Below are positions 3,041 to 21,613 of a DNA stretch of 64,000 nucleotides, piece by piece. The notes beneath the pieces are model-generated. The model searched no databases and was not told where the DNA came from. It saw nothing but the letters and a program-made list of their open reading frames with translations. A program made the position numbers and the translations under genes. How positions within the stretch are numbered: position 1 is the first letter of the stretch; each line of letters begins with the position of its first letter. Source of the DNA: an uncultured delta proteobacterium (GTDB lineage Bacteria > Myxococcota_A > Polyangia > Polyangiales > Polyangiaceae); the NCBI GenBank assembly GCA_963731595.1, contig CAVSWE010000003.1, forward strand, positions 44,948-108,947, given 5' to 3'.

Positions 3041-3051
3041 GCGCCCTTTCA

Positions 3052-4650
3052 TCAAGTACCCGGAATCTTGAGCGTGCGATCGTCGCGCGAAATTCGAGAC
3101 GGGCGGCCGGCGCGCTTGCGACGGCGGCGTAGCGCCTCTTGCACCTCGGGGCGCTCGAGATCGGCGGCGAGGATCTGCCAGGGAGCATCGAAGACGAACT
3201 GCTTCGCGGGCAAGATCTTGTCACGGATCAACACGCGGATCGCGTGGCAACTCACGCCAGCCTTCTCCGCGGCTTCGACCATGGTCAGGCATCGTCCGTC
3301 CTTGACGGCGGACTCGTAGCCCGGAATCCCTTTGGTGCGACGATAGTCGCCAACGCGCTTCGCGCTCCAGGTGTGCCCGAAGGGCGTTGTCGCGCCCATG
3401 CGATTCAAGCTCGCCGCGATGTGCTCATCGGACCACCGCGCGCCCATCTGGCGAATAACATCGTCGACCTCGACGGCGTTTCGCATCATGTGCTCGCCCG
3501 GTTGCGGCTTGCGGACCCGGAGCTCGGAGTGTTGCCCTCCTCGCCAATGGATCACGAGGATGACCTCGCGCTTGCCGTCGTCGACGTCGACGACGATCTC
3601 CTCAATCAGAGTACGAACGATTCGCTGCTTCGTTCGCATCTCGGTCGAGGACGAATTCCAGACCGCCTTGAGATCACCCGCGAGCGAGAGGAGCGAATCT
3701 CGATCGAGCACGGGCGTCGGCGTCGAGCTCAAGAGAAGGCGAGCGTCGCATTCCTTCAAGCGCGCCATGGCTGCGTTCCAGCGTGCCTCGAGCACGGTGG
3801 CGACGAGTCGATTGTCGGGATCGACTTTCTCGTACCGACGAGCCGCAAGCTTGACATCGTACTCGGCCTGTTCGCGCTCGAGCGCGAGAGCGCGGCGTTG
3901 CTCATCGATCTGCGTGATCGCTTCGCGCTCCGCCATGAGGGCAGCTTCCACGGCGAGCGGCTCAACGACAAGAAGAATCTCGGCACCGATCGCGAGGTCT
4001 GGCCGCGTTGCGCCGAAGCCGATGCAGGGCTCGATGCCGTGCATCTGCCGACCCCTTCGGCACGCGTACCGAGGCTTGTGATAGTGGCCCGTGTACGCGA
4101 CCTGGAGCATCCGCCCGCATCGTCGGCAACGAAGTAGACCAGCCAGCAATCCTCTGCCTCCACGTGCGGACTTCGAACTCCCCGCACGTTGACAGAACGA
4201 GTTGCGAGCGAGACGCGCGCGATTGCGCTCGAACGTTTCCCACGACACGAATGCCTCATGATGGTCGCGCGTGAGCACGGTCCATTTCTCCATGGCCTGC
4301 GCGCGGCCGTAGACCTTTCGCAGCGAGCCGTCGACGAGTTCGGTCTGCACCCGGTGCTTCCCGTACGCGTACGCGCCCGCATAAAACGGGTTCTGGAGAA
4401 CGGAGATCACACTCCGATATGCGGGCGCCCGCCACGCGAGCTGCGCATTGCATCGACCATTGGCCGGTCGCGGAAAGAGCAGGCCTTCGCGGCGCATGTG
4501 CAGAAGGACTTGAGTCGCGCTCCCGAGCCGCTCGAACAACCGGAAGATCGTGCGAATGGCATCTTGGATTCGCCGATCGGGATCCATCATCAGGCCCTCG
4601 TCGCGAGACCAGACGTAGCCGACAGGAACACTGATCCGAAGCTCTTGATC
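3052..4650 (-). pseudogene. Large serine recombinase, 3' fragment; N-terminal resolvase catalytic domain absent
   Basis: The 575-aa ORF begins directly in the recombinase domain ('ISVPVGYVWSRDEGLMMDPDRRIQDAIRTIFRLFERLGS'). It continues through a Zn-ribbon region ('LLRCRRCGRMLQ...YACRRG') and a coiled-coil C-terminal extension. The first about 30 codons of the naive ORF overlap the 3' end of IS3 orfB in another frame. No resolvase-like N-terminal ORF was seen on the far side of the IS3. Confidence 0.7.
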
Positions 4651-4681
4651 TTCCCCCGGCTGGGCGGACAGGTTTCGTAAC

Positions 4682-5554
4682 TCACGCGGCCATCTCCGAG
4701 ACGGACCGCTTCCATTCAAACGTAATCGGCGACTCGTAACCAAGAGAAGAATGCCTTCGTCGCACGTTGTAATAGCCATCGATGTACTCGCCTACGAGGC
4801 GGGTGCCGGCGGCGTGGTCGGCAGGCACGTTGTCGATGGCCTCGGTCTTCAGCGTGCCGTTGAAGCTCTCGGCGACGGCGTTGTCCCAGCAGTCGCCCTT
4901 GCGGCTCATGCTCGCGACGATGCCAGCGTTCGAGAGCGCGGCTCGGTACGCAGCGCTCGCGTAGGGGCTGCCGCGGTCGGAGTGGTGGACGAGCCCCGGT
5001 GGCGGCCGTCGCTGGCGCAGCGCGGCTCTGAGCGCGTCGAGTGCGAGCGCGGTGTCGTTGCTGGCGCTGGTCGCCCAGCCGACGACGCGGCGCGAGTACA
5101 GATTGAGGATGGCTGCAAGATACAGCCATCCGACCATCGTCCAGATCGCCGTCACGTCGGTCACCCACACGCGGTTCGGAGCGTCGGTCGTAAAATTGCG
5201 CGCGAGCAGGTTCGGCGCGATGGGGTCCTGATGCGACGAGTCGGTCGTGGCGACGAAGCGCTTCCTGCGGCGCGCCACGAGGCCGGTTTCCCGCATGATG
5301 CGCGCGACGCGCTTCTCGTTGACGACCTCGCCGTCGGCACGCAGCTCCTCAGCGACGCGAGGGCTCCCATAGCGGCCGCGATGGTCTCCGAAGATTGCGC
5401 GGACCTTGGAGGCGAGCGCGACATCGCGACGCTCACGCTCGGTGACGGGCTCGGCGAGCCAGTCGTAGTAGCCGCTCTTGGAGACGCCGAGCGCCTCGCA
5501 CATGGCCATGACCGGCCAGGCCACCTTCTGCGAATCGATGAACGCGTACTTCAC
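4682..5554 (-). CDS. IS3-family transposase OrfB (DDE integrase core)
   Basis: 'WVTDVTAIWTMVGWLYLAAILNLYSRRVVGW...HHSDRGSPYAS...DNAVAESFNGTLKTE', a classic rve-domain DDE. Confidence 0.85.
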   Translation of the reverse strand: MKYAFIDSQKVAWPVMAMCEALGVSKSGYYDWLAEPVTERERRDVALASKVRAIFGDHRGRYGSPRVAEELRADGEVVNEKRVARIMRETGLVARRRKRFVATTDSSHQDPIAPNLLARNFTTDAPNRVWVTDVTAIWTMVGWLYLAAILNLYSRRVVGWATSASNDTALALDALRAALRQRRPPPGLVHHSDRGSPYASAAYRAALSNAGIVASMSRKGDCWDNAVAESFNGTLKTEAIDNVPADHAAGTRLVGEYIDGYYNVRRRHSSLGYESPITFEWKRSVSEMAA

Positions 5555-5862
5555 GCGCTCTCCTTCGCGAAGAAGGTGGCCGCCGCTTTTAGGATGTCGC
5601 GTTCCCGCTGCAGGTGCTTGACCTCTCGTCGCAGCCGCGACAGCTCCTCGCGCTCCTGCGTCGTCAGCGCATCGCTACGCTCGCCGGCATCCGCCTCCGC
5701 GCGCCGTACCCACGCGTGCAGCGACGTCACCGTCAGATCGAGCTCCCGCGCCACCTGCGCGACTGACTTGCCGCTCTTCACGAGCCGCACCGCGTCGGCC
5801 TTCTGCGCCGCCGTGAACGCCCGCCGAGCGCGCCGTTTCTTGAGTTCCTTTTTTTGTCCCAT
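5551..5862 (-). CDS. IS3-family transposase OrfA (HTH + leucine zipper)
   Basis: 'RRAFTAAQKADAVRLVKSGKSVAQVARELDLTVTSLHAWVRR...ELSRLRREVKHLQRERDILKAAATFFAKE'. Confidence 0.85.
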   Translation of the reverse strand: MGQKKELKKRRARRAFTAAQKADAVRLVKSGKSVAQVARELDLTVTSLHAWVRRAEADAGERSDALTTQEREELSRLRREVKHLQRERDILKAAATFFAKESA

Positions 5863-6469
5863 CGTCGAACACTCCCGCGCAGTATCGCGCTACCCGACGA
5901 CAATTACCCGTGGAGTGAGCGATGAACCCTGGCGACGATCTGCAAGAGTAGTTGTCGTGCTTCTGCAAGAATAGTTGACGTCCATCAAGGGACGATTCCG
6001 CGACGTGCAAGGGTCGGTGCCGATGGCTTCTGCCACTTCGATCCAGCCTTCATCTATCGCTACCGGAAGCCACCTCCCATGTCCGTGAGCCAACTGCTCG
6101 ACGTGGGCGCACGATACGTGAGCGCGGCTCGGAGGTTCGCTGCGGAACGCACTGTGTGACGACCGTGTCCCTACCTTCTTACGAACGGCACGTGCAGCAG
6201 TTCGGCCGCCTTCTTCTGAGTCGCGTCCGGGCGTCTGCCTCACACCACCGTCAGCGTCGACGACGAGCAACGTCCCACCCATGAGGCGATGTTCGCTTCG
6301 GGACGGTCGAAAATCAACGGTCGCTTGCATGTATCCTACATGTTACGGCTGCTTTTTGGTTGGATGACGAGCACTTCTGTTTCTTGGCGGTCAAAGTTTG
6401 ACCGAACGCGCTGATCGCGATGGACCAGCGCGCCGCCGAAGCGATACCCCGGATTGAGGAGAAGGAACC

Positions 6470-8175
6470 ATGAACTTTCGCGTGTTGGCGCTTGCCATCC
6501 TCGTCACGGTCGGCTGCTCGGTCGCCGAGGACACCGGAGCATCGACCGAAGACCTCACGGGCGTCGCCTCCGTTGCGTGGACCAATGCGCCCAGCAAGGG
6601 GTCCACGGGGCCAAGTCACTTCGGAACGAGTTCGACCCTCACGGTTAGCGACAATTCGTGCGGCGGCCTTGGAAATGCATTTCGCACGACGACCGTGTGG
6701 GAGGAGGAGGCCGTCGGCAGCAGCGACTACCCGACGAACCTTTGGCTGGGAAATACCTGCGGATTCAACCCTGTCACGGTGAACTACGGCGGCGCCGCGC
6801 GCCCTCTCGACGCTGCCTTGACCGGGACTCCTACCCAGTGGACGAAGCTCTTCGGAGCACAGCCGATGTACTGGACCAAGGAGCCGACACTCGTGCCTCT
6901 GCTCGATCCGTCCACCTTCACGGCAGCGGGTGCTCCGGTGCCGATTGCACTCATCGGCTTGGTGGGACTATCGCCTACTGGGCCTTCGAACGAGCTCGCG
7001 GTCGCCTTGTCGCTCGACGGAGGGCAGACGTGGAATGATCCGACTGCGCCGCCGCAACTCCTCCTCCAGAGTCCCGACAACAGCGCGACCGGGGTCGACG
7101 ATTGGCCGTGAGCGCAGGGGGCCACCTAGACAACCAATCGGCAGGCTATCACGCGCTCTTTACGTCAAACACGTACGATATCTACATGACTTGGTGGAGC
7201 CTCAACTCGACGGCTCACCGCTGGTTTGATGTTGCGGGCTTTCGACTCAACCAGTGGTCCCATCTGCTCGTGACGCCTCCGGTGGACCTCAACGTTCGGG
7301 CGCCGGCCGTCTTCAACCCAACCGGTCAGCCATCCAACGATATCTTGTACATGAGCGTGGTATCCGCGATCAGCAAAGCTCAGGCGTCGGACCAGCCCAT
7401 GGTGTTGGTTGAGTGGCCCGTCGCGACAGACTTGAATCCGCCGCCGGAATACTTCACTCACTGCCCTGAGCCGACCACCACCATTCTCGGTCCTCCTGGG
7501 ATCGCATGGCATGCGGCGGTCTCCTACAACTACGGCAAGACGTGGAGCGCGCTTCGGGATTCGCACCCAAACGCGCAGGTACCGTTGTGCGTCGGTGCCA
7601 ACTCCTTGGTGGTACCGGGCTACGCCACCTACCGGAACTCGTTCCGTTCGTCGTTGGCCTTCGACCCGAATTCGAATACTATCATCGACGCGATTGCAAT
7701 GTGGGACACTTTCGACAACGTGCCAGGAACGTACATCGAGGCCAATGGGTTTTCGACTTACGCGACCACCCCTAGCCCCCTCCCGATCTTCCACACTACC
7801 CACGTAGATACCCAGGCGCGACAGGACCAGTTCCTGCCGGTCGTGTCGTCGGCGCTCGGAACCGGTGGGCCGCAAGGCTACGTGACGATCGCATGGCTCG
7901 ACTCCGTCGAGGACACTACAGGCTCGAATGTACCGACTGGCGTCTACGGTGTCACTAGCCAGGGCTTCACCATCAACACGCCAGGCTGGTCAACCACAAT
8001 GCGCGCATGGCCTGTTCCCCCGGCCGCACACGCCTACATGTTCAACGGTTTCCCCGACACGCTCGGCCGACACAATTCGATGAGTGTGCAGGGGTGGTCG
8101 TGGGTGACCTTCGCCGGTGACTATGCATCGCTTGGCCATGAGACCATGGACATGACAACCATCTCGCCGCTCTGA
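6470..8175 (+). CDS. Secreted BNR/Asp-box repeat lipoprotein (sialidase-like beta-propeller), interrupted by a frameshift near 7100
   Basis: Good RBS ('GGATTGAGGAGAAGGAACCATG'). Lipoprotein signal 'LAILVTVGCSV'. Asp-box motifs 'SLDGGQTW' and 'SYNYGKTW'. The reading frame stops at 7108 ('DDWP*') and continues from a TTG at 7102 in another frame ('AVSAGGHLDNQ...'). Confidence 0.55.
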
Positions 8176-8573
8176 TGCGCTTCGCACTACTCGCTGCAGT
8201 TGTCTCGACCGCACCGGTGTTCGCCGCCTGCGGCGGGCGGCTGCTCGAGGAGAGCGACGCGGACAAGCTCGACGGCGCCAGCGATGCCGTCGTCGACGGC
8301 CCCTATACGGGGGAGTGGTGCGATCCGGAGACGGGGAGCACGAGCGGCCCTGGCGGCGACGCGATCTATTGCACGAGCAACCCTTACACCGATGCGCCCG
8401 AGCATTGCCATCGCGCTTATTCGGCGACAGTGCAATGGAACTGCTGCACGCTCGACGATCCGCTCTGCTGTCCCTTGGCGTCGCACATGGAGGACCATGG
8501 CTACATCGCGACGTGCTGCGCGAGCGACACCGACTGCACCACCTGTTGCGACGGAATTGATCCGAAGCCCTGA
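8175..8573 (+). CDS. Small secreted cysteine-rich lipoprotein (16 Cys, CC doublets)
   Basis: Start overlaps the upstream stop (TGATG). Lipobox 'PVFAACGG'. C-terminal half 'WNCCTLDDPLCCPLASHMEDHGYIATCCASDTDCTTCCDGIDPKP' has four CC doublets. No recognised domain. Confidence 0.55.
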   Translation: MRFALLAAVVSTAPVFAACGGRLLEESDADKLDGASDAVVDGPYTGEWCDPETGSTSGPGGDAIYCTSNPYTDAPEHCHRAYSATVQWNCCTLDDPLCCPLASHMEDHGYIATCCASDTDCTTCCDGIDPKP

Positions 8574-8786
8574 CTGAGGCGCGGCAGAGTTTCGCGCCGC
8601 TGGAAGCTCGGGCTAGAGGGGCGACCTCGACGGCGTATGATCCGGGGCGACGGTTGGGGACCGCACAAAAACCGCGCTCGAAGAGACAACGCGCCGCACC
8701 AATAACAGTTGAACGTGGGTCGAAGCGCGCGTACGGTTGAGTCGACTGAGGGGGTCACGTTCGCGAACATACGAAAGGGGCTCGTG

Positions 8787-10574
8787 ATGTCTCGTCTCGC
8801 TTCTCAGAGGCGCCGCCGATTGGCGCGCCTCGCCGGGGCTGGTCTCGTGTTGGGTACCGTGGTCGTAGGCGCATGCACGCCGCCGCCAACGGGGACGCTG
8901 GAGATTCGATCGAATAACATCGTCGCGTTCTCGAGCGCGACGGGGTTCGCCCAATCCTGGTTCGGATCATCCCTGGGAACAGCGGACTTGATCTCGTTCG
9001 CAAACGCTTTGTCCGTGCATTACACGGATAATTTCTCGACTGTCGCCTCGCAAGAAGAGGTCCTCGTGATGGCTCGCGACCCGCTCGAATATCGAGCGAC
9101 GCTTGAGTCGATTGCGGGTCCGTCGAACAACGCCGTGGATCCCGGCCGATTTCTCGAGTTCACCGCACAAACGTGGGCGTGCGGTGACTCGTGGCCGATC
9201 GTTCCAGTGTTGTCGGACCCAGTGACGATCCCCCCGAACGGCTCCACACTTCCGTCCGCGGTCGGCATTCCGTTTCCAGACCAACAGCAATCACCTCAAA
9301 TCGACTGGGCCCTTTCCAAGCTCATGTTCGTGGGCAATGGGCCGAAACCCTGCGGGAGCTTCTCGGGCGCAGCTGCTGCCTTCGAAGGCACCATCAAGGG
9401 CCTGAGCGTCATGCGTCACGGGGTGTGCTCGATGGAGCAGAGCCTCGACGGCCTCTCCGGCCTGAAAATGGTCCCACCGAACCTCATGGCCTTGGGGTTG
9501 GGTATCGATGTAGCGGACTTCGGATTGAGCTCTTTCGTGACCTATGCGCCGAATGGCGGTTTCATTGTAACCGGGCACGTCGATACTTCCGAGTTGCTCC
9601 TACCGCCCGCTCCGCCCATTCCGGTCGCCGCGAGCATCGACCGAAACTACACTTACCGGTTTTCGCTCGACGACGGGATCATGTCGATCGACGCGCCTAC
9701 GGCGAACATCTCCAACGATAGCGGCGTCGATCCTCTGTCCGTCGGTTCGCTGGTCAACGGGCTTCTCTCGAACGTGGTGCCCAATGCGGCCAAGCTTGCC
9801 GTTCTCGACGGTCCCCCGGGGACGTTCATCGGAGGTCTGGCGCAACCAATGCCCGCTCCGCCACCGATCGGCGGGATCCCGCCGGCCTGTACAATAACGA
9901 CGGGGCAACGACCCTCGACCTGCTTCATTCCGTGCCGCAACTCCGACAACGTCGACATGGCCGATCCGAGCACATGGCCATCGCCCGAAGACGCCAACGA
10001 TCCCAACCACATCGATCCCCCGAGTTGGCACGACTCGAAGTTCTGCGGCTTGCCCGCAGCGCTCCTCGGCGGACTCGCTGGTGGCGCCACCTCACCGCTG
10101 GGCGCGACGATCACCGAGCCACTACCAGTTGCGACGGGCGGCGTCGACACAACCAAGTTCCACAACTGGCGCTGCAACTTCCACCCACGTTACGAATCGC
10201 CGACATCGAGCATTGCAGTGAAGAGCCTTGATCCGGTGACGAATGCAGCTCCGTTCGGGCTTGGTGGGACGACCATCGTCACCGGTCCACCCGTGTGCGA
10301 GTTGATCGTGCGGGTGAAGAGGCTGAACGTATTCCCCGACTCCGTGGAAGCCGTTTTCTTCGACGGTACGAGCACGACCGCACCCGATTTGAGTGACGCG
10401 GCTGGCAACGAGGCGCTCGCAGTCTTCACGGGCCTGAGCGCGCTCGTGGGCCCGGGTGCTGCGAGCAGCGCAATGTGTGGGCGACAACCCGAAACGCCAG
10501 GTGCTCAGTTACTTTGCAATGCGGGCGCGTGCACTCCGCGACAGCGAAGCTTCGCCCATTTCATGCTGCACTGA
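8787..10574 (+). CDS. Large secreted lipoprotein (~595 aa), unknown function
   Basis: RBS 'AAAGGGG' 8 nt upstream of the ATG. Signal 'MSRLASQRRRRLARLAGAGLVLGTVVVGACT' (RR motif plus lipobox). Gly/Pro/Thr-rich, no motif recognised. Confidence 0.55.
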   Translation: MSRLASQRRRRLARLAGAGLVLGTVVVGACTPPPTGTLEIRSNNIVAFSSATGFAQSWFGSSLGTADLISFANALSVHYTDNFSTVASQEEVLVMARDPLEYRATLESIAGPSNNAVDPGRFLEFTAQTWACGDSWPIVPVLSDPVTIPPNGSTLPSAVGIPFPDQQQSPQIDWALSKLMFVGNGPKPCGSFSGAAAAFEGTIKGLSVMRHGVCSMEQSLDGLSGLKMVPPNLMALGLGIDVADFGLSSFVTYAPNGGFIVTGHVDTSELLLPPAPPIPVAASIDRNYTYRFSLDDGIMSIDAPTANISNDSGVDPLSVGSLVNGLLSNVVPNAAKLAVLDGPPGTFIGGLAQPMPAPPPIGGIPPACTITTGQRPSTCFIPCRNSDNVDMADPSTWPSPEDANDPNHIDPPSWHDSKFCGLPAALLGGLAGGATSPLGATITEPLPVATGGVDTTKFHNWRCNFHPRYESPTSSIAVKSLDPVTNAAPFGLGGTTIVTGPPVCELIVRVKRLNVFPDSVEAVFFDGTSTTAPDLSDAAGNEALAVFTGLSALVGPGAASSAMCGRQPETPGAQLLCNAGACTPRQRSFAHFMLH

Positions 10575-11146
10575 TGATGAGCGTACGGCACGGCGTCAGG
10601 CACATCCCCCTTGCGGCGCCAGCATACTTCCTGTGCGTCACGGTTGGATGCGCAACGATCACGCGCGAATCGACGGTGACAGCCATCGAGGCCACGACAA
10701 AGCCGCGTAGCCAGGTCGTCAGCGTCAATGGCGTGCCGGTCTTCGACGCGCCTCCGATATCCCAGGGCGACTCGGTCACGTTGGTCACGACGAAGGGTCG
10801 GGTCGCGCTTCGACCTTCGGACAAGGTCACAATCCGGACAACGTATTGCGACGGCGACACGATTCCCAATGAAGGTGTTGTCCGAGCGCGCCCTTCGAGC
10901 GGACTCATCGTCGCAGGCGTCTCGATGTTCGCTGGCGGTCTTGCGGGGATGGGGATCACCGCTTGGGAGGCAAACATCTTCACGCATGACCTTTCGACCC
11001 TGCCAGGCGCCGTCGCGTTTCTCGCCGTCAACGGCACCATCGCGGCGGCGGGGCTAGCGTTGCTGATCGTCGGTGTCTTTCCGCGCGCGCGCGTTGTGAC
11101 CACGATGTATGGATCGTCTAGCACCGGTTGGGGTATCTCCTTCTAA
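10574..11146 (+). CDS. Lipoprotein with C-terminal transmembrane segments, unknown function
   Basis: ATG overlaps the previous stop (TGATG). 'YFLCVTVGCATI' lipobox. Hydrophobic C-terminus 'GVSMFAGGLAGMGITAW...AFLAVNGTIAAAGLALLIVGVF'. Confidence 0.5.
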   Translation: MMSVRHGVRHIPLAAPAYFLCVTVGCATITRESTVTAIEATTKPRSQVVSVNGVPVFDAPPISQGDSVTLVTTKGRVALRPSDKVTIRTTYCDGDTIPNEGVVRARPSSGLIVAGVSMFAGGLAGMGITAWEANIFTHDLSTLPGAVAFLAVNGTIAAAGLALLIVGVFPRARVVTTMYGSSSTGWGISF

Positions 11147-11158
11147 GGAATTGTCGCC

Positions 11159-11713
11159 ATGCAGATCCATCGCTTGATTTGTTTCACGCTTGCCAGCGCA
11201 TGCGGCGGCACCGTCACCGGAAACGACGCCGAAGCGCCGGACGCCGTAGCGGACGTCGTCACTGAATCCGCAATGGATGCTGCGTTCGACGCGCCACCAG
11301 ATTCACAAACGGACGGGGGCGCGTGTAACACGCTCATCAATGGTGCGACGCCCCTGTACGCCATGCAAAAGTCGAGCAGCGCACCGAGCCCGCTCGGTGG
11401 AACGGTGGTGCCCGGCCTCTACTATCTCACGGCAATAAACCAATACGATGGCAAAGCCGGGCAGACGGGGCCGCTCACTCAGAGCACCATTCAAATCACC
11501 GGGACGAATGCCGAATTCGCGGAGCAGGTTGGTACCGCGTTGTCGCGTGGCTCAGTCATGTTCAGTACGAGCGGCACCACTTTCACATTCAACATGACAT
11601 GCCCACAGATTACATCTTATGCGACGGAATATACAGCTACTGCAACCGCGCTCATCTATTATTCCGACCTCGGTCAAGGCAACGTGGCCGAGCAAATATT
11701 CACGCGGCAGTGA
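11159..11713 (+). CDS. Lipoprotein, unknown function (Thr/Ser-rich)
   Basis: Signal plus lipobox 'LICFTLASACGG'. No known motif. Confidence 0.5.
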   Translation: MQIHRLICFTLASACGGTVTGNDAEAPDAVADVVTESAMDAAFDAPPDSQTDGGACNTLINGATPLYAMQKSSSAPSPLGGTVVPGLYYLTAINQYDGKAGQTGPLTQSTIQITGTNAEFAEQVGTALSRGSVMFSTSGTTFTFNMTCPQITSYATEYTATATALIYYSDLGQGNVAEQIFTRQ

Positions 11714-11805: not shown

Positions 11806-11841
11806 CCGAGGTCGGCGAGAGAAAGTCCTCGCCGACCTCGG
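11806..11841. terminator. Perfect 14-bp GC-rich inverted repeat (hairpin) between the convergent lipoprotein operon and IS630
   Basis: 'CCGAGGTCGGCGAG-agaaagtc-CTCGCCGACCTCGG'. No downstream T-tract, so it could equally be an IS630 terminal structure. Confidence 0.35.
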
Positions 11842-11861
11842 CACGATGTGCATCGGCCACC

Positions 11862-12965
11862 CTAGTGCACCGCCGTCGAGATGCGATCAAGCATCCGGCG
11901 GTGTGAGCGGATGATTGCGGCTGCGGGTTTGGTCCACTCGAAGGGCGTTGGGTTTGAGTTCCACGACCGCATGAACGCGTGCAAGTGATCCCGCAAGGCG
12001 CTCTTGGAATCGAAGCTTGTGACTCCGAGAGACTGCTTGCCGAGAATCCCGAAGAAGCCCTCGACCTGATTGAGCCAAGAGGCGCTGGTCGGCGTGTAGT
12101 GGAAGTGCACCTCGGGATGCTCGGTGAGCCACGCCTCGATGGCGGGCGTGCTGTGCGTGGACGAGTTGTCGAGAATCACGTGCAGCTCCTGCTTCGGATA
12201 GACGCCGACGACCTTCTTCATGAAGCCCAGGAAGTCACTCGCGGTGTGCGCGTCGGTCAGCTTGTGCGTCACCTTGCCCGTTGCCACTTCGAGCGCTGCA
12301 TAGAGATCGATGACGCCGTGTCGCTTGTAGTCGTGCGTATGTCGAACGGCGCGTCCCGTGCGTAAGGGAAGCGGCATCTGCGTGCGCTGCAGGGCTTGAA
12401 TGGAGGTCTTTTCGTCGACGCTCAGACACGACGGCATTGTCGGGCGGGTTCAAGTACAGGCCCACTACGTCCTTCACTTTTGCGGTGAATTCCGGATCTC
12501 GGCTGACTTTGTACGTTCGCACCAGATGTGGCTTGAGCCCGTTCTCTCGAAGCAGATCGGAGATGCACCCGCTGGTGAGACCGACCTTCTTGCCGAGCAG
12601 CCTGGTGGTCCAGCGGCTTCGGCCAGCAGGCGGAGGCGACATCGCAAGTTGGACGACTCGCTCGACCGTCTCGCGCGGCACCGCGTGGTCCTGACGCCCT
12701 GACTTCGGGCGAGCGGTGAGACCCGGTACGCCCTCGTCGTAGAAGCGTCGCGAAGCTTCGACACGTGTTCTGGCGACAGATCCAACCGGACGGCGATCTC
12801 GGCTCCCGACACGCCGGCGTCGGTCAACAGAATCACGCGAGCCCGCCGGACGAGCCCCGCTCTTTCGGACGAGCGAGCGACGATCGCCTCCAGTTCTTCA
12901 CGCTGCTTGCCGGTGAGCTTGATCTCGATGACTTCTGCCATGCCGCAGCGAACGCGCGGCGGCAA
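11862..12965 (-). pseudogene. IS630-family (Tc1/mariner-like) transposase split over three frames
   Basis: N-terminal HTH ORF 12474..12965. Middle ORF 12235..12681 ('RWTTRLLGKKVGLTSGCISDLLRENGLKPH'). DDE C-terminus ORF 11862..12437 ('VILDNSSTHSTPAIEAWL...HFHYTPTSASWLNQVEGFF'). Two frame changes. Confidence 0.7.
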
Positions 12966-13391: not shown

Positions 13392-13583
13392 ATGGAGGCA
13401 TGTATGTCGAGGAAGAGCAAGTTCTCGGAGGCTGAAATCATCGGAGCACTGAAGGAGATCGAGGGCGGCGCGACGATGAAAGAGACGGCGCGCAAGTACG
13501 GAGTCAGCGGCGAAACGATGTCGCGGTGGCGAGCGAAGTACGGCGGAGTGACCGTCACGAAAGCATCACTTCGGCGATCTTGA
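13392..13583 (+). pseudogene. IS3-family OrfA N-terminal stub
   Basis: 'SRKSKFSEAEIIGALKEIEGGATMKETARKYGVSGETMSRWRAKYGG', then immediate termination. No leucine zipper and no orfB. Confidence 0.5.
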
Positions 13584-13907: not shown

Positions 13908-15323
13908 TCAGCTCGATGAGGACGCCAGCTCGCGCAGGCGTCGAAGCAAGAGGACGAGCCCGAAGGTGTCGCGCTCGCAGTACGCGAGCAACGCGTCGCG
14001 CTCGGTTTCCGTCGCGGCGCCCGAGAGCACGCGCTCGAGCGTGACGGTGGCCGCGAAGCCGTCGGCGATGGCGAGGTTGTCGTAGTTTGCAGTCGTGAGC
14101 GCCGGAAGCATACGCTTCAGACCGAACGAGCCGCCGAACGCAGGGTCGTAGACGTGATTGCGAACGACCGGCAGGAGATCGACGACGCGATCGCGCACAG
14201 AGAGGAGGTCGGTCGCGAGATCCGGAAGCGCGGCTGCAAGGTCCGCGAGCACGCGCCGCTCGAAGCCCGCGTTGTAGACCGCGATCGACTGCGCGCCCGC
14301 GCATGCCGCGATGACGGCGTTCGCGACTCCGCGTCGCGGGTCGCTCGAGTCGCTCGCGATCCACGCGTGATGCGCGCCGCCGTCGCGGTGCACGCTCACC
14401 TGCACCGGAACCGCCTGATACGGCGAGCACCCGTCCCACGTCGGGACGGGAAGGCTCACCGTCTCGAAGTCGAGGAACGCGACGGGCGGCGTGAACGCCG
14501 CGAGCGCGCCCGCGAGATCGCCCTCCACGACGAGCGCGCCGCTCTGCACCGCGCGGCGCTGACGCTCCGCGATCCCCTCGAGCGGCTCGTCGATGTCGCC
14601 GATGACCTTGATGCCTTCCTCGAGCAGCCGCGCCGCGAGCTCGCGCCCGCGGTAGAGCGTCGTCACGTGGTCGGCGGACACGGGCCCGAAGCACCGCTCC
14701 TGAAACGGACACGGATACGGCGACTCGCAGTGCCGCCCGCGCACCGCGTCGGGCATCAGGTCGCGCTCGAGCACGCGGAGCTGCTTCCGGATCGCGCGCG
14801 AGAGCTTGGGCGCGAGCGTCGCGACGTCGGCCGTCACGTCCTTGCGCACGAACAGATCGCGCAGGTTCGGATAGGTGCAAGAGGAGTTGAGGTGCATGAT
14901 CTCGACCCTCCGCACGAGCAGCCCCGAGTGTGCGATCACGTGCGCTTGCACGGCCGCGTCGGTCAGGTGCTGCTCTTTCACGCTCGTCGTGGACTTCACC
15001 TCGATGATTCGCCATCCGCCGCGCTCGCGCACGAGCACGTCGGCCGCAACGAACACGTCGTCCGCGACGAAGGAGGCTTCGTAGATGACGGACGCACCGG
15101 CAGCGAGGGCCTGACGCGTCGCCTCGACGCGGTGCTCGTCGTTCGCGATCAGAACGCCGCCCGGAAACTCCTCACGCGCTCGCTCGCCGATGCGGTGTCC
15201 TTGATCGAAGACGGCCTGAAGGCTCGCATCCACGACGAGCTCCGGGGCGTCCGGCTCGTGAACGCGAAGCCAGAGCGCGCGATGGCACTGGAGGCCCACT
15301 TGGAAGCGCGACTTGGAGAGCAT
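13908..15323 (-). CDS. DUF2779-domain protein (predicted nuclease-like)
   Basis: N-terminus 'MLSKSRFQVGLQCHRALWL' is the typical DUF2779 start. 471 aa in one frame. Confidence 0.65.
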   Translation of the reverse strand: MLSKSRFQVGLQCHRALWLRVHEPDAPELVVDASLQAVFDQGHRIGERAREEFPGGVLIANDEHRVEATRQALAAGASVIYEASFVADDVFVAADVLVRERGGWRIIEVKSTTSVKEQHLTDAAVQAHVIAHSGLLVRRVEIMHLNSSCTYPNLRDLFVRKDVTADVATLAPKLSRAIRKQLRVLERDLMPDAVRGRHCESPYPCPFQERCFGPVSADHVTTLYRGRELAARLLEEGIKVIGDIDEPLEGIAERQRRAVQSGALVVEGDLAGALAAFTPPVAFLDFETVSLPVPTWDGCSPYQAVPVQVSVHRDGGAHHAWIASDSSDPRRGVANAVIAACAGAQSIAVYNAGFERRVLADLAAALPDLATDLLSVRDRVVDLLPVVRNHVYDPAFGGSFGLKRMLPALTTANYDNLAIADGFAATVTLERVLSGAATETERDALLAYCERDTFGLVLLLRRLRELASSSS

Positions 15324-15408
15324 CGAGCTTCAACATACGGCCGGGGTGCGAAGAAACGGTTCGCACCTGTTGCCAAGAGGGAATGCCTCGCGTGCGCCGC
15401 GAGGTAAC

Positions 15409-16176
15409 ATGTGCAGCTCAATGCAACTCCCTCTGAAACCTTTCCATGTCGGGGAAGCGCTCGTCGCGAAGCTGATGAAGCGGATCGGACCTGGCGCGCT
15501 GGCGGGAATCACAACCGGAACAAGCTTGCCGCCGACCGGCGATTTTGATGTTCGCGATGATGTGGCGCTCTGCGAGATCACTGCTATTGATGCCCTTTTT
15601 CCGCATATCGCGACCTGCTACAGCAGCGCCCCAGGCCATACGGGAACGCCAGGTTCGTACAAATTCGATGCTCAGAGTCGCATCGATGTGATCACCAAGC
15701 ATGACGCCGCCGTCGGCCGCGTTGCCCTTGCTTGGGAGGTCAAGCTCGGAGACACATGCAAAACGTGGTCATCGTTCAAGAACGCGTTTCTCAACGCGGG
15801 CACGGACTTCAACAAGAAGTCTCAACCAGCTGGTAAACCTCGGCAGATCCTTCCAATCATTTCGGGCAGCATGCCGATCATTCTGCGAGACTACGTTCAG
15901 AGCATCGGAGTCTTCAGCGGCGCCAAACCGAGTGATGAGCTTCGCTGCACGTGGAACAGCACCAGTGTGCCGTTGATTCGTGGCTGGGGCCTGGTGGCCC
16001 GGCAAGCGCTGGTGGACGACCTCCTCAAAAAGAAAACGCCTCGAACCCAAGGCCTGCATTACATGATCTCGTTCAAGAAACTCGCGGAAGAAGCGGGCCG
16101 AAACGGTTTCGACGACACAGTATGGGATCTTCTTGGGCTGAGCCGAATCAGCTTCTACGATCAATGGATCAAGTGA
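15409..16176 (+). CDS. Hypothetical protein in the low-GC island; possible PD-(D/E)xK nuclease-like core
   Basis: RBS 'GAGGT' 5 nt before the ATG. GC about 55 percent. 'IDVITKHDAAVGRVALAWEVKLGD' gives a D...ExK arrangement. No confident family assignment. Confidence 0.4.
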   Translation: MCSSMQLPLKPFHVGEALVAKLMKRIGPGALAGITTGTSLPPTGDFDVRDDVALCEITAIDALFPHIATCYSSAPGHTGTPGSYKFDAQSRIDVITKHDAAVGRVALAWEVKLGDTCKTWSSFKNAFLNAGTDFNKKSQPAGKPRQILPIISGSMPIILRDYVQSIGVFSGAKPSDELRCTWNSTSVPLIRGWGLVARQALVDDLLKKKTPRTQGLHYMISFKKLAEEAGRNGFDDTVWDLLGLSRISFYDQWIK

Positions 16177-17099
16177 GTCGGGCAACGCAGCGACTGCTTG
16201 CAAGATACGTCCTACAGCGCGTCGAGGCCCGTCTTCGTTCGAAGACGAACGACGTCAGCGTTATCGGCCTTGGCGCAGCCTTCGAGGCATGGCTCGCATT
16301 CGAGGCTCGGTTGGCGCTTGAGGGCGACCATCGAGGTCTGCGACGCGCCGCCGGCGTTCAAGGGGGCGCCCCCATCTCGACGATCAACGAATGGAAGAAG
16401 GTGGACCTCAGCGTGTGGTCCGCCGTCGAGCCTATCGCCTGGCGCTCGAATCCAAACTCGTTCACAACAACAAGAACTGGCGTACGAAGTGCGACGACAT
16501 CTGTAACGATCTCTACCCGAAAGGGCCAAAGCAGCGCTTGGCTTGGAGGCTCGGTCGCCGGTGATTGTTGGCCTAGTGTGGAAGCGTTTCACCATGAGAG
16601 ACAACGCAACATATCCCGGCGAAGTGATGCTTCCTTTTATGAGTGGCACCGTCAGGTGTTTGAACACCTCAACGAATCATCGCGTTGTTCGAGTCGCGCA
16701 GTCGGCTCGCCTAACGTTTGCAGCGCTGCCCCGATGGTTCGATCAAAAGGCTCCGCATGGCATGACGCTCGTTGCGACCATGCCCACCAGAGGTGCGTTG
16801 CGAAACATCTTCCCGTAAGCATCGATCGCTCGCCACGGCTAGCGACCGGCCTGAAGTTACAAGGCATCCCGGCTGGTAGTCGGCACACGCGATGCGACGG
16901 TATCCGGGCGTGCCACACTTCACATGCTGCGGGATCCACCAAATCTTGCGACACATTCCAAGAGCTAGTTAGGTTAACGTTATAACCGCGTACTCTGTCG
17001 AGGATGAATAATGCCTAATATTCCGTGGTTGACCGAGGAACAGCGTGCGAGCGTGGATGCTCGGATCCAAGTAATCGAACGAGAATTGCCTAAGCGCCA

Positions 17100-17420
17100 T
17101 TGGGCAGAGTTAACGAGCGTTCTGACCTTGCACATGGGCAGACCGCAGTAATATATATATTGGATTATCGCGGATTGACGTTGCGCGGCGCGATCCGATA
17201 CGCTCTTAGGGACGCTAGCACGAGGCTTCTCTACCGAGGGCAAACACGCCGATACAAAACCGGGTTCGTTCCTGGCCTTTTTCGAGAAGCCAATGATCGC
17301 GCGGAAAAAGAGCGCCGTCTTAGCACTCTTCGCAAGGCGATTGATTGCATCAGGAACACCTGGGATCGCAGGGCGCTTCCGACGATGAGCGCGTTGCGCT
17401 TGCGCAACATTATGGCTTGA
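17100..17420 (+). pseudogene. FRG-domain-like remnant (abortive-infection-type), frames broken
   Basis: 'LLYRGQTRRYKTGFVPGLFR' resembles the FRG motif. A QHYGL-like continuation ('HYGLKTP') appears only in a different frame after the stop. About 53 percent GC. Confidence 0.3.
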
Positions 17421-18089
17421 AAACGCCGTCACCCATTATGTTCAAACCGCTGCTTGGTTTCGTACAACGATCTCGCTGGACCACCTCGTTTCACTACTGA
17501 CACGACAAGCAAGGTGCCGACGCCAAACGGATTAATGACGATCTTGTGGACGTATTTCCCTAATGGCGGCGCCGACCAGCACCAATGACGACTGCAAGTG
17601 CGTGGACCTACGATTAAGGGATTGAACTGGCTACGCTCCGGATGTCCAGCAAGGCTTCGCGATCCTGCTGGCAGATCCACTTCGTTCTGGTGGAAGACTC
17701 GATGAACTACTCGTTGCAACGTTTGTTTTTGCGACCTCTCCTGAGGGGGTGGTTTTCCCATGACGATCTTGGGCCAGAGATCTTCTACTCGAACCTGCTG
17801 GAAGACGAGGGATCTGTATTGGGATCTTGCGACGACGAAACTGAAAAATGAGTTGGTACAATCGGAATATCAACAGGTCGTATGGTGTGCTGCGAAAAGT
17901 GAGTAAGCCGTATACACACGAAAAGGCGGCGCCGCTCATGGCCGTGCTGAGTTTTCACAGAAACGCGCTCGGATCGCCGGTGGCGATTCTGACTCGCACA
18001 GCATTCTGCAACGGCTTCGACTTGCATTCGAAAGGCCGAACTGTCGAAAACACACGCGCACCACTCACGGATCTTCGCAAGCGCACGAG

Positions 18090-19043
18090 ATGACGTGTAC
18101 CGTCAGCGCGAGCAGATTCACACCTCGTTGTTCTGACGTCAGAGCCTGGCGGCTGCTCCACGTGATGGTCTTGAGCGAGGCCCTTCCACTGGCGGAACGC
18201 GCTCATCCGCCTTCGCTCTCGACGGACACGGGTCGCACCTCATGGGATCCTCAGAGCGACCTGTGGCGAAGAAGCGAAGAGGACGACCGCCTTCTTGTTA
18301 CGAGTGAGTCGGTCAAGCACCGGCGAAGCCTCGCGAACGACGCGCTCCGCCAGCTCCTTCGCGACGAGGAAGTCGACCCGGACGCGCCCGCGCGCCGCAA
18401 CGCGCGCGAGGAAGAGGCGCTCGAGCGTCCGATGCGACTCGACGAGCAGCGCATCGGCGCCGTCGTCGCCGCGCTGAAGGCGTGCGGCGCGAAGTCGGTC
18501 GTCGACCTCGGCTGCGGAGAGGGCAAGCTCGTTCGTGCGCTCGTGAAGGAAGCGTCGTTCGAGCGCATCGTCGGTGTCGACGTCGCGCACCGCGCGCTCG
18601 AGCGCGCCGCCGAGCGCCTTCACATGGACTCGATGCCGGAGCGCCAGCGCTCGCGCGTCGCGCTTCTTCACGGCAGCATTCTCTATCGCGACCAGCGCAT
18701 CGCCGGCTTCGACGCCGCCGCGCTGGTCGAGGTCATCGAGCATCTCGACCCGCCTCGGCTTCACGCGTTCGAGCGCGTCGTGTTCGAGTTCGCGCGCCCT
18801 CGGACGGTCGTGCTGACGACGCCGAACGCCGAGTACAACGTGCACTTCGCCGGGCTCGAAGCGGGGAAGCTCCGTCACAAGGACCACCGCTTCGAGTGGA
18901 CGCGCGCCGAGCTCGAGGCGTGGGCGCGCACCGTCGCCGAGCGTCACCGGTACGCCGTGCGTTTCCTCGGCGTCGGCAGCGACGACCCCGTGACGGGTCC
19001 GCCGACGCAGATGGCGATCTTCGATCGAGTGGAGGCGATGTGA
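18090..19043 (+). CDS. hen1: Hen1 RNA 3'-terminal 2'-O-methyltransferase, methyltransferase domain only (N-terminal Pnkp-interacting domain apparently absent)
   Basis: SAM motif I 'VVDLGCGEGKL'. 'VGVDVAHRALERA...LLHGSILYRD...ALVEVIEHLDPPRL...FEWTRAELEAWA' matches bacterial Hen1 C-terminal MTase. Only about 135 aa precede motif I, and the first about 70 codons lie in lower-GC sequence that looks non-coding. Stop overlaps the pnkp GTG start (ATGTGA). Confidence 0.75.
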   Translation: MTCTVSASRFTPRCSDVRAWRLLHVMVLSEALPLAERAHPPSLSTDTGRTSWDPQSDLWRRSEEDDRLLVTSESVKHRRSLANDALRQLLRDEEVDPDAPARRNAREEEALERPMRLDEQRIGAVVAALKACGAKSVVDLGCGEGKLVRALVKEASFERIVGVDVAHRALERAAERLHMDSMPERQRSRVALLHGSILYRDQRIAGFDAAALVEVIEHLDPPRLHAFERVVFEFARPRTVVLTTPNAEYNVHFAGLEAGKLRHKDHRFEWTRAELEAWARTVAERHRYAVRFLGVGSDDPVTGPPTQMAIFDRVEAM

Positions 19044-21613
19044 CCGAGCCTCTCAAGATTCCCGAGCTCGCGCTCGTCGTGCTCGTCGGAGCGTCCGGCT
19101 CGGGCAAGTCGACGTTCGCGCGCAAGCACTTCAAGGCGACCGAGATCCTCTCGTCCGACGCGTGCCGTGGTCTCGTGTCCGACGACGAGAACAACCAGGC
19201 GGCCACCGAATCGGCGTTCGAGGTGCTCCACTTCATCGCGAAGAAGCGCCTCGCGCGCGGTCTTCTCACGGTGGTCGACGCGACCAACGTCCAGGCCGAG
19301 GCGCGCAAGCCCCTCGTCGCGCTCGCGCGCGAGTTTCATGCGCTGCCCGTCGCGATCGTGCTCGATGTTCCGGAGAACGTGTGCCGCGAGCGCAACAAGG
19401 CGCGCGCCGACCGCGCCTTCGGTCCGCACGTGATCCGGCAGCACATGCAGCAACTCCGCGCGTCGCTGCGCAAGCTCGAGCGCGAAGGCTTTCGACACGT
19501 CCACGTGCTCGATTCGCTCGAAGCGATCGAGGCAGCGACCATCGTGCGTCAGCCGCTTTGGAACAACAGGAAGCACGAGCGCGGCCCGTTCGACGTCATC
19601 GGCGACGTGCACGGCTGCTTCGACGAGCTCGAGGCGCTGCTCGGCGAGCTCGGCTACGTCGTTCGGCGTACCGACGGCGCCGAGCACGCGTTCGACGTGT
19701 CGCACCCGGAGGGTCGCAAGGCCATCTTCGTCGGCGATCTCGTCGACCGTGGCCCCAAGGTGCCCGACGTGCTCCGCCTCGTCATGGCGATGACCGCCCA
19801 GAACGTCGCGCTCTCCGTGCCCGGCAACCACGACATCAAGCTGATGCGGAAGCTCCGCGGCAAGGACGTTCGCATCACGCACGGTCTCGCCGAGTCGCTC
19901 GCGCAGCTCGAACAGGAGCCGCCGGAGCTCTCCGCGCGCGTCGCCGACTTCGTCGACTCGCTCGTCAGCCACTACGTCTTCGACGACGGCAAGCTCGTTG
20001 TCGCGCACGCGGGTCTGAAGGAGTCGATGCAGGGTCGCGGCTCGGGCGCCGTGCGCGAGTTTGCGCTCTTCGGCGAGACGACGGGCGAGACCGACGAGTA
20101 TGGACTGCCGGTGCGGTATCCGTGGGCGCAGGACTATCGCGGCAGCGCCGCCGTCGTGTACGGACACACGCCCGTCCCGGAAGCCGAGTGGCTGAACAAC
20201 ACGATTTGCATCGACACGGGCTGCGTCTTCGGCGGCAAGCTCACGGCGCTCCGCTGGCCGGAGCGGAAGCTCGTGAGCGTTCACGCCGCGTACACCTATT
20301 ACGAGCCCGCGAAGCCCTTTTTGCCGAAGGACGCCGCGGCGCCCGCGCTCACCGATCAACAGCTCCACGACGACGTGCTCGATCTCAACGACGTCCTCGG
20401 CAAACGCATCGTTCAAACGTCGCTCCACCACGCGGTCACGATTCGCGAAGAGAACGCCAACGCGGCGCTGGAGGTGATGAGCCGCTTTGCGGTGCAGCCG
20501 AAGTGGCTCGTCTACCTTCCGCCGACGATGTCGCCGTGCGAGACGACGGCGCGTCCCGGCATGCTCGAGCATCCGGCGGAGGCCTTCGCGTACTTCCGAA
20601 ACCACGGCGTGCCGGCGGTCGTGTGCGAGGAGAAGCACATGGGCTCGCGCGCGGTCATCCTCGTGTGCCGTGACGAGGAGGCGGCGCGGAAGCGCTTTGG
20701 CGTGGTTGGCGAAGGCATCGGCGTCGTCGTGACGCGCACCGGGCGGCCGTTCTTCGGCGACGCCGAGCTTCAGGCTGCGCTTCTTCAGCGTCTCCATTCG
20801 GCCATCGGCAAGGCGGACCTCTGGTCGAAGCTCGATACGAGCTGGCTGTGCCTCGACGCCGAGCTCATGCCGTGGTCGCTCAAGGCGCAGGAGCTCCTTC
20901 GCGCGCAATACGCGGCCGTCGGCGCCGCCGCCGAGATGATGCTCGCCGATGCGCGGACCGCGCTCGCGCAGGCCCTGTCGTGCGGCCTCGACGTGAGCGC
21001 GCTCGCCGAGCGCACGGCGGCGCGCGATGCGATGACCGCGAAGTACCGCGACGCGTATCGTCACTACTGCTGGTCGGTCGCCTCCATCGACGACGTGAAG
21101 CTCGCCCCGTTCCACGTGATGGCGAGCGAAGGCCGCGTCCACGTGGGCGAGGATCACCTCTGGCACATGGCGACGCTCGCGTCGCTCTGCGCTGAGGACG
21201 AAGGCCTGCTCGTCGCGACGCCGCACCGGCGCGTCGAGCTAACCGACGCAGAGAGCGAAGCGGCCGCGGTCGCGTGGTGGGAAAAGGTCACCGCGCGCGG
21301 CGGCGAAGGCATGGTCGTCAAGCCGCTCGACTTCGTCGCTCGCGGTAGCCGCGGTCTGCTCCAGCCCGCCGTGAAGTGTCGAGGGCGCGAGTACCTGCGC
21401 ATCATCTACGGCCCCGAATACGACGCCCCCGAGAACCTCGAGCGCCTGCGGTCGCGCGGGCTCGCGGCGAAGCGCTCGCTCGCCTTGCGCGAGTTCGCGC
21501 TCGGCGTCGAGGGCCTCGAGCGCTTCGTGCGCGGCGAGCCGCTCCGGCGGGTGCACGAGTGCGTCTTCGGCGTCCTCGCGCTCGAGAGTGAGCCAGTCGA
21601 CCCGCGGCTATGA
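19040..21613 (+). CDS. pnkp: Polynucleotide kinase-phosphatase/ligase Pnkp (P-loop kinase, metallophosphatase, adenylyltransferase/ligase)
   Basis: 'LVVLVGASGSGKSTFA' (kinase P-loop). 'DVIGDVHGCFDELEALL...GDLVDRGP...GNHD' (calcineurin-like phosphatase). C-terminal ligase domain with 'EEKHMGSRAV' (KxxG nucleotidyl motif). 857 aa, apparently full length. Confidence 0.85.
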   Translation: MTEPLKIPELALVVLVGASGSGKSTFARKHFKATEILSSDACRGLVSDDENNQAATESAFEVLHFIAKKRLARGLLTVVDATNVQAEARKPLVALAREFHALPVAIVLDVPENVCRERNKARADRAFGPHVIRQHMQQLRASLRKLEREGFRHVHVLDSLEAIEAATIVRQPLWNNRKHERGPFDVIGDVHGCFDELEALLGELGYVVRRTDGAEHAFDVSHPEGRKAIFVGDLVDRGPKVPDVLRLVMAMTAQNVALSVPGNHDIKLMRKLRGKDVRITHGLAESLAQLEQEPPELSARVADFVDSLVSHYVFDDGKLVVAHAGLKESMQGRGSGAVREFALFGETTGETDEYGLPVRYPWAQDYRGSAAVVYGHTPVPEAEWLNNTICIDTGCVFGGKLTALRWPERKLVSVHAAYTYYEPAKPFLPKDAAAPALTDQQLHDDVLDLNDVLGKRIVQTSLHHAVTIREENANAALEVMSRFAVQPKWLVYLPPTMSPCETTARPGMLEHPAEAFAYFRNHGVPAVVCEEKHMGSRAVILVCRDEEAARKRFGVVGEGIGVVVTRTGRPFFGDAELQAALLQRLHSAIGKADLWSKLDTSWLCLDAELMPWSLKAQELLRAQYAAVGAAAEMMLADARTALAQALSCGLDVSALAERTAARDAMTAKYRDAYRHYCWSVASIDDVKLAPFHVMASEGRVHVGEDHLWHMATLASLCAEDEGLLVATPHRRVELTDAESEAAAVAWWEKVTARGGEGMVVKPLDFVARGSRGLLQPAVKCRGREYLRIIYGPEYDAPENLERLRSRGLAAKRSLALREFALGVEGLERFVRGEPLRRVHECVFGVLALESEPVDPRL

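Follow-up and report, generated by a model that had tools for sequence, protein, structure and literature searches.

A low-GC patch of probably foreign and mostly dead DNA next to a truncated hen1 gene in an IS-rich region of a Polyangiaceae genome

Background

We report on a low-GC patch located between positions 15,330 and 18,250 of a 64,000-nucleotide stretch of DNA (hereafter the window, numbered from its first letter) from an uncultured delta proteobacterium assigned to the Polyangiaceae (GenBank assembly GCA_963731595.1, contig CAVSWE010000003.1, positions 44,948 to 108,947 of the forward strand). That the patch was horizontally acquired and has decayed is well supported, and we consider it probable that it is a mostly dead remnant of such DNA in a region rich in insertion sequences (IS), where one rearrangement would have placed the patch and cut the adjoining hen1 gene. 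The latter belongs, together with pnkp, to the Hen1-Pnkp RNA-repair cassette, which confers immunity to ribotoxins. The evidence comes from the composition of the patch, the state of the open reading frames (ORFs) in it, and the point at which homology to Hen1 begins.

Results

Composition and extent of the patch

In 400-nt windows the GC content is 0.52-0.61 at approximately 15.3-18.1 kb, compared with 0.67-0.73 over the DUF2779 gene to the left and 0.69-0.75 from 18.2 kb rightward. The patch as a whole has a GC content of 0.564, which is the minimum among all 2.9-kb windows of the 64 kb and 11 standard deviations under the windows to the right of 18.3 kb (0.715 ± 0.014; z = -11). Its tetranucleotide usage, computed strand-symmetrised and with the part of the window right of 18.3 kb as the host-like reference, correlates with that reference at r = 0.68, while 15 host pieces of equal length give 0.885-0.95. 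A first-pass annotation of this DNA had claimed a GC content well below that of the flanks and proposed that the windowed GC and k-mer signature be recomputed; the composition is indeed not uniform and the patch deviates in both respects.

The left flank (3-13.4 kb) is also GC-depressed, at 0.60-0.64, and the patch is the lowest-GC piece of a wider, roughly 17-kb IS-ridden mosaic. Within the patch the lowest GC (0.53) falls in the part without coding signal, and GC climbs over the final ~150 bp. The GC at third codon positions (GC3) is 0.66 for ORF1, the intact gene of the patch, vs 0.87-0.89 for hen1, pnkp and the DUF2779 gene. Three observations lead us to infer that the DNA is of foreign origin: the patch deviates in composition, the intact ORF1 is low in GC3, and the relatives of ORF1 are at home in DNA of ~0.6 GC (see below).

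The features of the patch and of the cassette that follows it are:

15330..18250, no strand: low-GC patch of foreign-looking DNA (GC 0.564 and tetranucleotide deviation)
15409..16176, plus strand: ORF1, 255 amino acids, intact, predicted PD-(D/E)XK-type nuclease (coding signal, five-member family, E16...D93...E110-x-K112)
16164..16985, plus strand: ORF2, open frame of 273 codons, probable pseudogene (coding signal to ~16,430 only)
17011..17151, plus strand: 46-codon ORF (GAGGA Shine-Dalgarno-like sequence 6 nt upstream)
17149..17161, no strand: 13-bp run of A/T only, TAATATATATATT, between the 46-codon ORF and the FRG remnant
17154..17500, plus strand: FRG-domain pseudogene (joined frames pass the PF08867 cutoff)
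17501..18250, no strand: DNA without a recognisable gene (six-frame Pfam scan, coding score, no Hen1 signal)
18252..19043, plus strand: 3' half of hen1, linker and 2'-O-methyltransferase domain (tblastn, hidden Markov model, TIGR04074)
19040..21613, plus strand: pnkp, 857 amino acids, intact (PNKP_ligase 6e-184, AAA_33, Metallophos)

Every feature that the first-pass annotation had listed was found at its coordinates. This applies to the D...ExK arrangement in the protein encoded by 15409..16176, the frame-broken ORF or ORFs from 16164 to about 16570, the FRG-like 'YRGQ...LFR' remnant, the 46-residue ORF and the AT-rich element next to it, the shortened 5' end of hen1, the minus-strand DUF2779 gene at the left border, and the nearby IS3 orfA stub and IS630; its view that the patch was horizontally acquired and has partly decayed also stands, given the composition, the frameshifted FRG gene, the loss of signal in ORF2 and the lack of anything coding at ~16.5-18.2 kb.

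The 5' half of hen1 is missing and pnkp is intact

In the source annotation Hen1 has 292 amino acids (P0007), with the ATG at 18,165 as its start; extended as far as possible, the ORF begins at 18,090. The closest relative among genomes, a locus in a Polyangiaceae metagenome-assembled genome (L001), encodes a 473-amino-acid Hen1 followed by Pnkp. With this Hen1 as query, tblastn matches the window over residues 222-464 only (77% identity, no gaps). Likewise, a hidden Markov model of 67 full-length Hen1 proteins is limited to positions 216-466, with its envelope starting at nt 18,252 and its alignment at 18,276, and TIGR04074 gives 340.5 bits (cutoff 340) over profile positions 216-461 of 462; the methyltransferase Pfam domains match as well. 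These three independent profiles place the beginning of Hen1 homology at model position 216-222, corresponding to nt 18,252-18,294. None of the six frames of the 64 kb encodes the N-terminal half (approximately residues 1-215), which is present in L001, in the closest metagenomic locus (L085) and in 67 other loci. We considered that 18,090-18,250 might be diverged hen1 and rejected it: the 80 upstream codons give no signal with the Hen1 model and nucleotide identity to L001 is random until ~18,300.

The hen1 truncation is real, with a breakpoint (18,250-18,300) that falls on the right edge of the patch as defined by composition; the edge and the loss of the first ~215 codons coincide within ~150 bp. 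As to the earlier suggestion that the patch truncated hen1, the co-location thus holds and the causal event is not distinguishable, i.e. insertion, IS-mediated deletion and illegitimate recombination cannot be told apart.

In pnkp the kinase, phosphatase and ligase domains are all retained and the protein is 79.6% identical, without gaps, to L001 Pnkp. Its GTG start overlaps the hen1 stop (GTGA, 19040-19043), as in L001, which suggests translational coupling, so that expression of pnkp may depend on translation of the truncated hen1. The locus resembles the Hen1-Pnkp cassettes of the Clostridium thermocellum and Anabaena type in that hen1 and pnkp follow each other in the same orientation with overlapping stop and start, and in having the three Pnkp domains. 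It differs in that Hen1 is incomplete: the N-terminal ~215 residues, through which the Pnkp ligase is bound and activated, are missing. [quoted passage not shown] The ligase needs the missing half to seal RNA, so that the cassette would at best be able to heal and methylate the ends of broken RNA without rejoining them.

ORF1 and its sparse family

ORF1 is the sole clearly intact gene in the patch. In a codon log-odds profile, for which genes of similar GC served as training set, its frame is positive from end to end and the remaining five frames are negative; GC by codon position is 0.56/0.47/0.66. The protein carries 'IDV...WEVKLG' and has no match in Pfam, PADLOC, NCBIfam, PHROGs or PDB, whether searched as single sequences or as a family profile. 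A word-indexed search of 5.8 billion proteins returned ORF1 itself only, and 1.84 billion cluster representatives, scanned exhaustively with HMMER, yielded ORF1 and one relative (P0002; 33% identity, E = 1.3e-5). A profile of these two retrieved three further relatives (P0003-P0005). The family accordingly has five known members, with the relatives being 26-33% identical to ORF1, and is real and extremely sparse.

In the five-member alignment (A2) about 40 positions are invariant, E16, D93, E110 and K112 among them. The invariant motifs are the N-terminal 'F-x-x-H-x-G-E' with E16, 'FD-x-x-S-x-ID' with D93 and 'WE-x-KLG-x-T' with E110 and K112, and also 'G-x-M-x-x-IL-x-D' and 'R-x-WGL-x-x-R'. 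The order E...D...ExK, with D and ExK on neighbouring strands, is a hallmark of PD-(D/E)XK nucleases. Strands are predicted at residues 91-99 and 103-112 of ORF1, in low-confidence models only: AlphaFold2 gave a mean predicted local distance difference test score (pLDDT) of ~33 with the single sequence, and likewise with the five-sequence alignment. The motifs point to ORF1 being a nuclease of the PD-(D/E)XK type. The family is like the Cas4/RecB-like domains in that a Glu in an N-terminal helix, a strand with 'ID' and a strand with 'WE-x-K-LG' are conserved in canonical order and spacing, and ORF1 differs from them in giving neither a significant match to Pfam, PADLOC, NCBIfam or PDB nor a confident structure. 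The D...ExK pattern seen at the first pass is hence invariant throughout the family; of the two checks proposed for this protein at that time, the comparison with defence-system models gave no PADLOC match and the structure prediction gave models at pLDDT 33.

In one relative, P0005 (L083, 1910-3166), the ORF1-like module follows an FHA domain (3e-20) at the N-terminus, to which it is fused. In the same locus an IS630 transposase fragment lies directly upstream of the P0005 gene on the opposite strand. The four loci with ORF1 homologues have no neighbouring gene in common with one another or with the window, and two of the four adjoin IS21 or IS630 sequences. The homologues are found in DNA of 0.58-0.65 GC and their own GC matches that of their surroundings, which is the composition of the patch.

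ORF2

The ATG of ORF2, at 16,164, overlaps the ORF1 stop (ATGGATCAAGTGA), and ORF2 is called in the source annotation as a 273-amino-acid coding sequence (P0006, a singleton). Its first ~90 codons (~270 nt, 16,164 to ~16,430) are coding-like, with a GC by position of 0.71/0.48/0.71 and log-odds of +9 to +14; from ~16,430 the log-odds in the same frame are -7 to -18. The best frame briefly switches, to 16,430-16,564 ('AYRLALESKLVHNNKNW'; 'AYRLALESKLVHNNKNWRTKCDDICNDLYPKG'), and after that none scores positive. Moreover, Cys, His, Ser and Arg are abundant in the C-terminal 185 residues, as in a translation out of frame. ORF2 has probably been hit by at least one frameshift and is probably a pseudogene. 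One frame correction would yield 'KKVDLSVW...YRLALESKLV', and it is speculation that this could be a second D...ExK motif. ORF2 has no match in Pfam, NCBIfam, PHROG, PADLOC or PDB, nor among plasmid or viral sequences. A relationship as paralogue of ORF1 was rejected since the ORF1-family model matches ORF1 alone in the six-frame translation of the window.

The FRG remnant and the rest of the patch

The frame containing 'RLLYRGQTRRYKTGFVPGLFRE' (17,154-17,420) matches FRG with 13.4 bits over profile positions 2-42, and the adjacent frame containing 'ERVALAQHYGLKT' (17,345-17,500) with 14.4 bits over positions 47-70. When joined (17,154-17,384 and 17,381-17,497), the two frames match PF08867 FRG with 30.0 bits (E = 1e-6, positions 2-70 of 94), where the Pfam gathering cutoff is 25 bits and the join was picked by eye, guided by the motifs. 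These are 'LLYRGQ...GLFRE' at 17,226-17,290 and 'ALAQHYGL' in the next frame. The match is not a chance one, because two collinear matches fall to one family out of 24,736. No uninterrupted frame encodes the full domain: a frameshift falls between ~17,345 and 17,385, a stop follows at 17,498, and the match does not extend to positions 71-94. On these grounds 17,154-17,500 is classified as a frameshifted FRG-domain pseudogene. In a six-frame Pfam scan of 16,100-18,299 with the frames left unjoined no family was found.

The FRG domain has been assigned to the ADP-ribosyltransferase superfamily and is a computationally predicted antiviral effector, possibly a NADase (PMC9503650). The remnant resembles proteins with this domain in its profile score over the cutoff and in its [FY]RGQ and QHYG motifs; it differs from them in being dead, with at least one frameshift and the stop at 17,498, and in lacking the partner genes that a known system would have.

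At ~16.5-18.2 kb the coding signal is not sustained in any frame. At 17,501-18,250 the single window above threshold is 17,851 (7.6 bits, in the frame of the 17,848-18,093 ORF), with low windows on either side; this part may be more debris of the FRG gene, e.g. 'VQQGFAIL' at ~17,650. The coding score of the 46-codon ORF is weakly positive; the source annotation does not include this ORF, and it matches no family in Pfam, PADLOC, NCBIfam or PHROG. A palindromic element, GGTTAACGTTATAACC, at 16975-16990, approximately 20 nt upstream of the ribosome-binding site of this ORF, may be an operator-like site. The A/T run TAATATATATATT is the only run of at least 11 A/T bases in the window (shuffles expect 0.05), and its surroundings show no match to a promoter consensus and no unusual RNA folding (z = -0.2).

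The boundaries of the patch and related loci

Neither direct nor inverted repeats flank the patch, no att-like repeats are present at 11-19.5 kb, the 64-kb window has no tRNA gene and the patch itself no integrase. The Hen1 fragment was used to scan genome and metagenome contigs; of the 160 loci retrieved, the closest were L001 among genomes (77%) and L085 among metagenomes (75%). Both have a full-length hen1 followed by pnkp and their Hen1 N-terminal halves are 90% identical. The two cassettes (L001, 9338-13329; L085, 4773-8761) have no flanking gene in common with each other or with the window; the ancestral arrangement can therefore not be reconstructed, and in this group the hen1-pnkp cassette itself seems to change its genomic surroundings. 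No relative with an empty site was found among the Hen1 loci scanned, none of which is closer than 75-77% in Hen1 identity. The definition of insertion boundaries from related genomes, as suggested at the first pass, was thus not possible, the relatives sharing no flanks and repeats and tRNA being absent.

The FRG and ORF1 families have no counterpart beside hen1 in 164 related loci. An unfiltered tblastx comparison of the loci gave high-GC compositional noise only. Searches of viral, plasmid and phage sequences with ORF1, ORF2, FRG and the whole patch DNA gave no match, and the Rfam scan found nothing of note.

The neighbourhood in the window

To the left of the patch the window has the following features:

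1639..3132: IS66 transposase gene
3052..4779, minus strand: large serine recombinase gene, ORF of 575 amino acids (Recombinase and Zn_ribbon_recom domains)
4682..5889: IS3 copy, orfB at 4,682-5,554 (rve, HTH_21) and orfA at 5,554-5,889 (HTH_Tnp_1)
6470..11713, plus strand: run of co-oriented ORFs at 6,470-7,111, 7,102-8,175, 8,175-8,573, 8,709-10,574, 10,475-11,146 and 11,159-11,713
11862..12965: split IS630-family transposase, DDE_3 ORF at 11,862-12,437 and HTH (HTH_23) ORF at 12,474-12,965
13392..13583: IS3 orfA stub (HTH_Tnp_1, profile positions 1-57 of 75)
13908..15323, minus strand: DUF2779/Cas4-like nuclease gene, intact (PF11074 1.5e-30, Cas4-like N-terminus; GC 0.69, GC3 0.88)

The DUF2779 gene is host-like and lies outside the patch. 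The large serine recombinase lacks the catalytic N-terminal resolvase domain, with the 5' end of its gene abutted by IS3 and the 3' end overlapping the IS66 transposase ORF, and looks like a gene wrecked by IS insertions. The ORFs at 6470-11713 have overlapping or abutting ends, a GC content of ~0.62 and a tetranucleotide correlation with the host of 0.68; none of the six matches Pfam or PADLOC and none of the four ORFs at 6,470-10,574 matches PHROG, and the run is an unexplained, foreign-looking gene cluster. In the IS630 transposase a third ORF (12,235-12,681) overlaps the other two, and the gene has either a programmed frameshift or is a broken copy. Just past the 3' end of the IS630 transposase ORF, at 11803-11844, is a perfect 17-bp inverted repeat (GTGCCGAGGTCGGCGAG / CTCGCCGACCTCGGCAC, with a spacing of 8 nt) that may be a terminator or an IS end.

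The patch is not recognisable as a defence system

Against PADLOC-DB v2 there was no match for ORF1, ORF2, the 46-residue ORF, the unjoined FRG piece or the five members of the ORF1 family, and none for ten further ORFs at 15-11,713. There is no conserved gene pair either, given that none of the four ORF1-homologue loci has an ORF2-like neighbour. The FRG domain is the only defence-associated domain in the patch, and it is in a pseudogene. The anti-phage or abortive-infection islet proposed at the first pass, with a dead FRG gene and a nuclease-like motif as its grounds, is a reasonable guess about the past of the patch and not a demonstrated system. What is present now is ordinary gene-transfer debris and not a recognisable defence system.

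The patch is like other small, compositionally atypical genomic islets in its GC and oligonucleotide deviation, its orphan and pseudogenised cargo, its IS66, IS3 and IS630 neighbours and the broken recombinase nearby. Unlike them, it carries no integrase and is neither flanked by att repeats nor placed at a tRNA gene. Of the features of integrative islands, atypical composition is hence seen, and repeats and tRNA are not; the only recombinase is truncated and lies 10.5 kb to the left.

Discussion

We propose that the patch would have come from a donor lineage of roughly 55-62% GC into an IS-rich variable region of a Polyangiaceae-like genome of ~71% GC. On arrival the cargo would have comprised at least three genes, i.e. 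ORF1 with its E...D...ExK signature, ORF2 translationally coupled to it, and a gene with an FRG domain. The FRG gene would later have been frameshifted and truncated, and the frame of ORF2 lost after ~90 codons. Only ORF1 keeps all residues that are invariant in its family and therefore only ORF1 may still be made. One and the same rearrangement would have both placed the patch and cut hen1, and we regard this course of events as probable.

Several findings weigh against this account. There are no insertion scars in the form of flanking repeats, a tRNA gene or an internal integrase, and the search yielded no close relative in which the site is empty. In the pseudogene portion, AT-biased decay of dead DNA could explain some of the fall in GC, and probably adds to it. 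The nuclease assignment of ORF1 is based on its motif, with no profile or PDB match and with both models at pLDDT 33. ORF2 is an uninterrupted frame of 273 codons, which is unlikely by chance, and is an annotated coding sequence in the source, which leaves its pseudogene status unproven. Finally, the 3' half of hen1 shows no decay (77% identity to L001, ungapped, where pnkp has 79.6%) and the truncated protein may still be in use; either hen1 was truncated recently or its methyltransferase still has a use.

The patch might instead be the right end of a larger, degraded integrative element (~3-18.25 kb), brought into hen1 by the serine recombinase at 3,052-4,779, with later IS insertions and deletions having destroyed the recombinase and removed the 5' half of hen1. 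Large serine recombinases can integrate inside genes, the entire 3-18.25 kb zone is under the GC of the host and holds such a gene, with its Recombinase and Zn_ribbon_recom domains, and the zone is interrupted by the IS66, IS3 and IS630 copies and the IS3 stub. However, the recombinase is without its catalytic N-terminal domain and abutted by IS3, the 5' half of hen1 is not found to the left of it or elsewhere in the window, the DUF2779 gene in the middle of the zone is host-like in composition, and att-like repeats are lacking at 11-19.5 kb. We consider such an element unlikely.

It is also unlikely that ORF1 and a full-length, 273-residue ORF2 make up a two-gene conflict module that still works, either in defence or in the manner of a toxin-antitoxin pair, with the FRG gene alone being dead. 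ORF1 is intact and has kept all invariant residues, ORF2 is unbroken over 273 codons and annotated in the source, its start overlaps the ORF1 stop in an arrangement typical of translational coupling, and one ORF1-family member has an FHA domain, of sensor type, at its N-terminus. But by its score the ORF2 frame is non-coding from ~16,430 to the end, where another frame is briefly better, and its last 185 residues have the Cys/His/Ser/Arg-rich make-up of an out-of-frame translation. In addition, an ORF2-like neighbour is present in none of the four homologous loci and no member has a PADLOC match.

A more far-reaching idea, to which we assign a low probability, is that ORF1 stands for a truly new family of stand-alone PD-(D/E)XK effectors that is extremely rare (five among ~15 billion proteins, one of them fused to FHA), which would act in conflicts between genomes and travel beside IS elements, and whose arrival here would be tied to the disabling of the Hen1-Pnkp cassette. 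If so, Pnkp would have been left with a methyltransferase-only Hen1 that may have taken on a different role.

Native DNA, in the sense of former host genes that lost their function and drifted to lower GC by AT-biased mutation, with hen1 cut by an unrelated deletion, is very unlikely. The GC minimum of 0.53 does lie in the part without coding signal, as mutational decay predicts; yet the intact and clearly coding ORF1 is also low in GC3 (0.66 vs 0.88), its relatives are known only from genomes of ~0.6 GC, and neither its family nor FRG has a counterpart beside hen1 in the 164 related loci. Drift would moreover hardly lower the GC by 15 points across 2.9 kb, and with sharp edges, while the neighbours stay at 0.69-0.72. 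That the junctions are artefacts of a chimeric contig in a draft or metagenome-derived assembly is hardly credible: the source is a single contig of 345,914 bp and the composition changes abruptly at both edges, but two false junctions 2.9 kb apart within a long contig are improbable, the region has other signs of real rearrangement (IS copies, truncated genes), and an ORF reads across the right junction.

Conclusions

A remnant of acquired DNA, as we read the patch, illustrates how a high-GC myxobacterial genome gathers and degrades foreign DNA, and its importance is in this sense limited. The ORF1 family was not described previously; it is very sparse, has a nuclease-like signature and, with no function linked to it, can be added to lists of candidate conflict genes. 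For the RNA-repair cassette, the locus amounts to a natural knockout of the N-terminal module of Hen1 with Pnkp and the Hen1 methyltransferase intact, and the strain could act as a natural test of the role of Pnkp without activation of its ligase.

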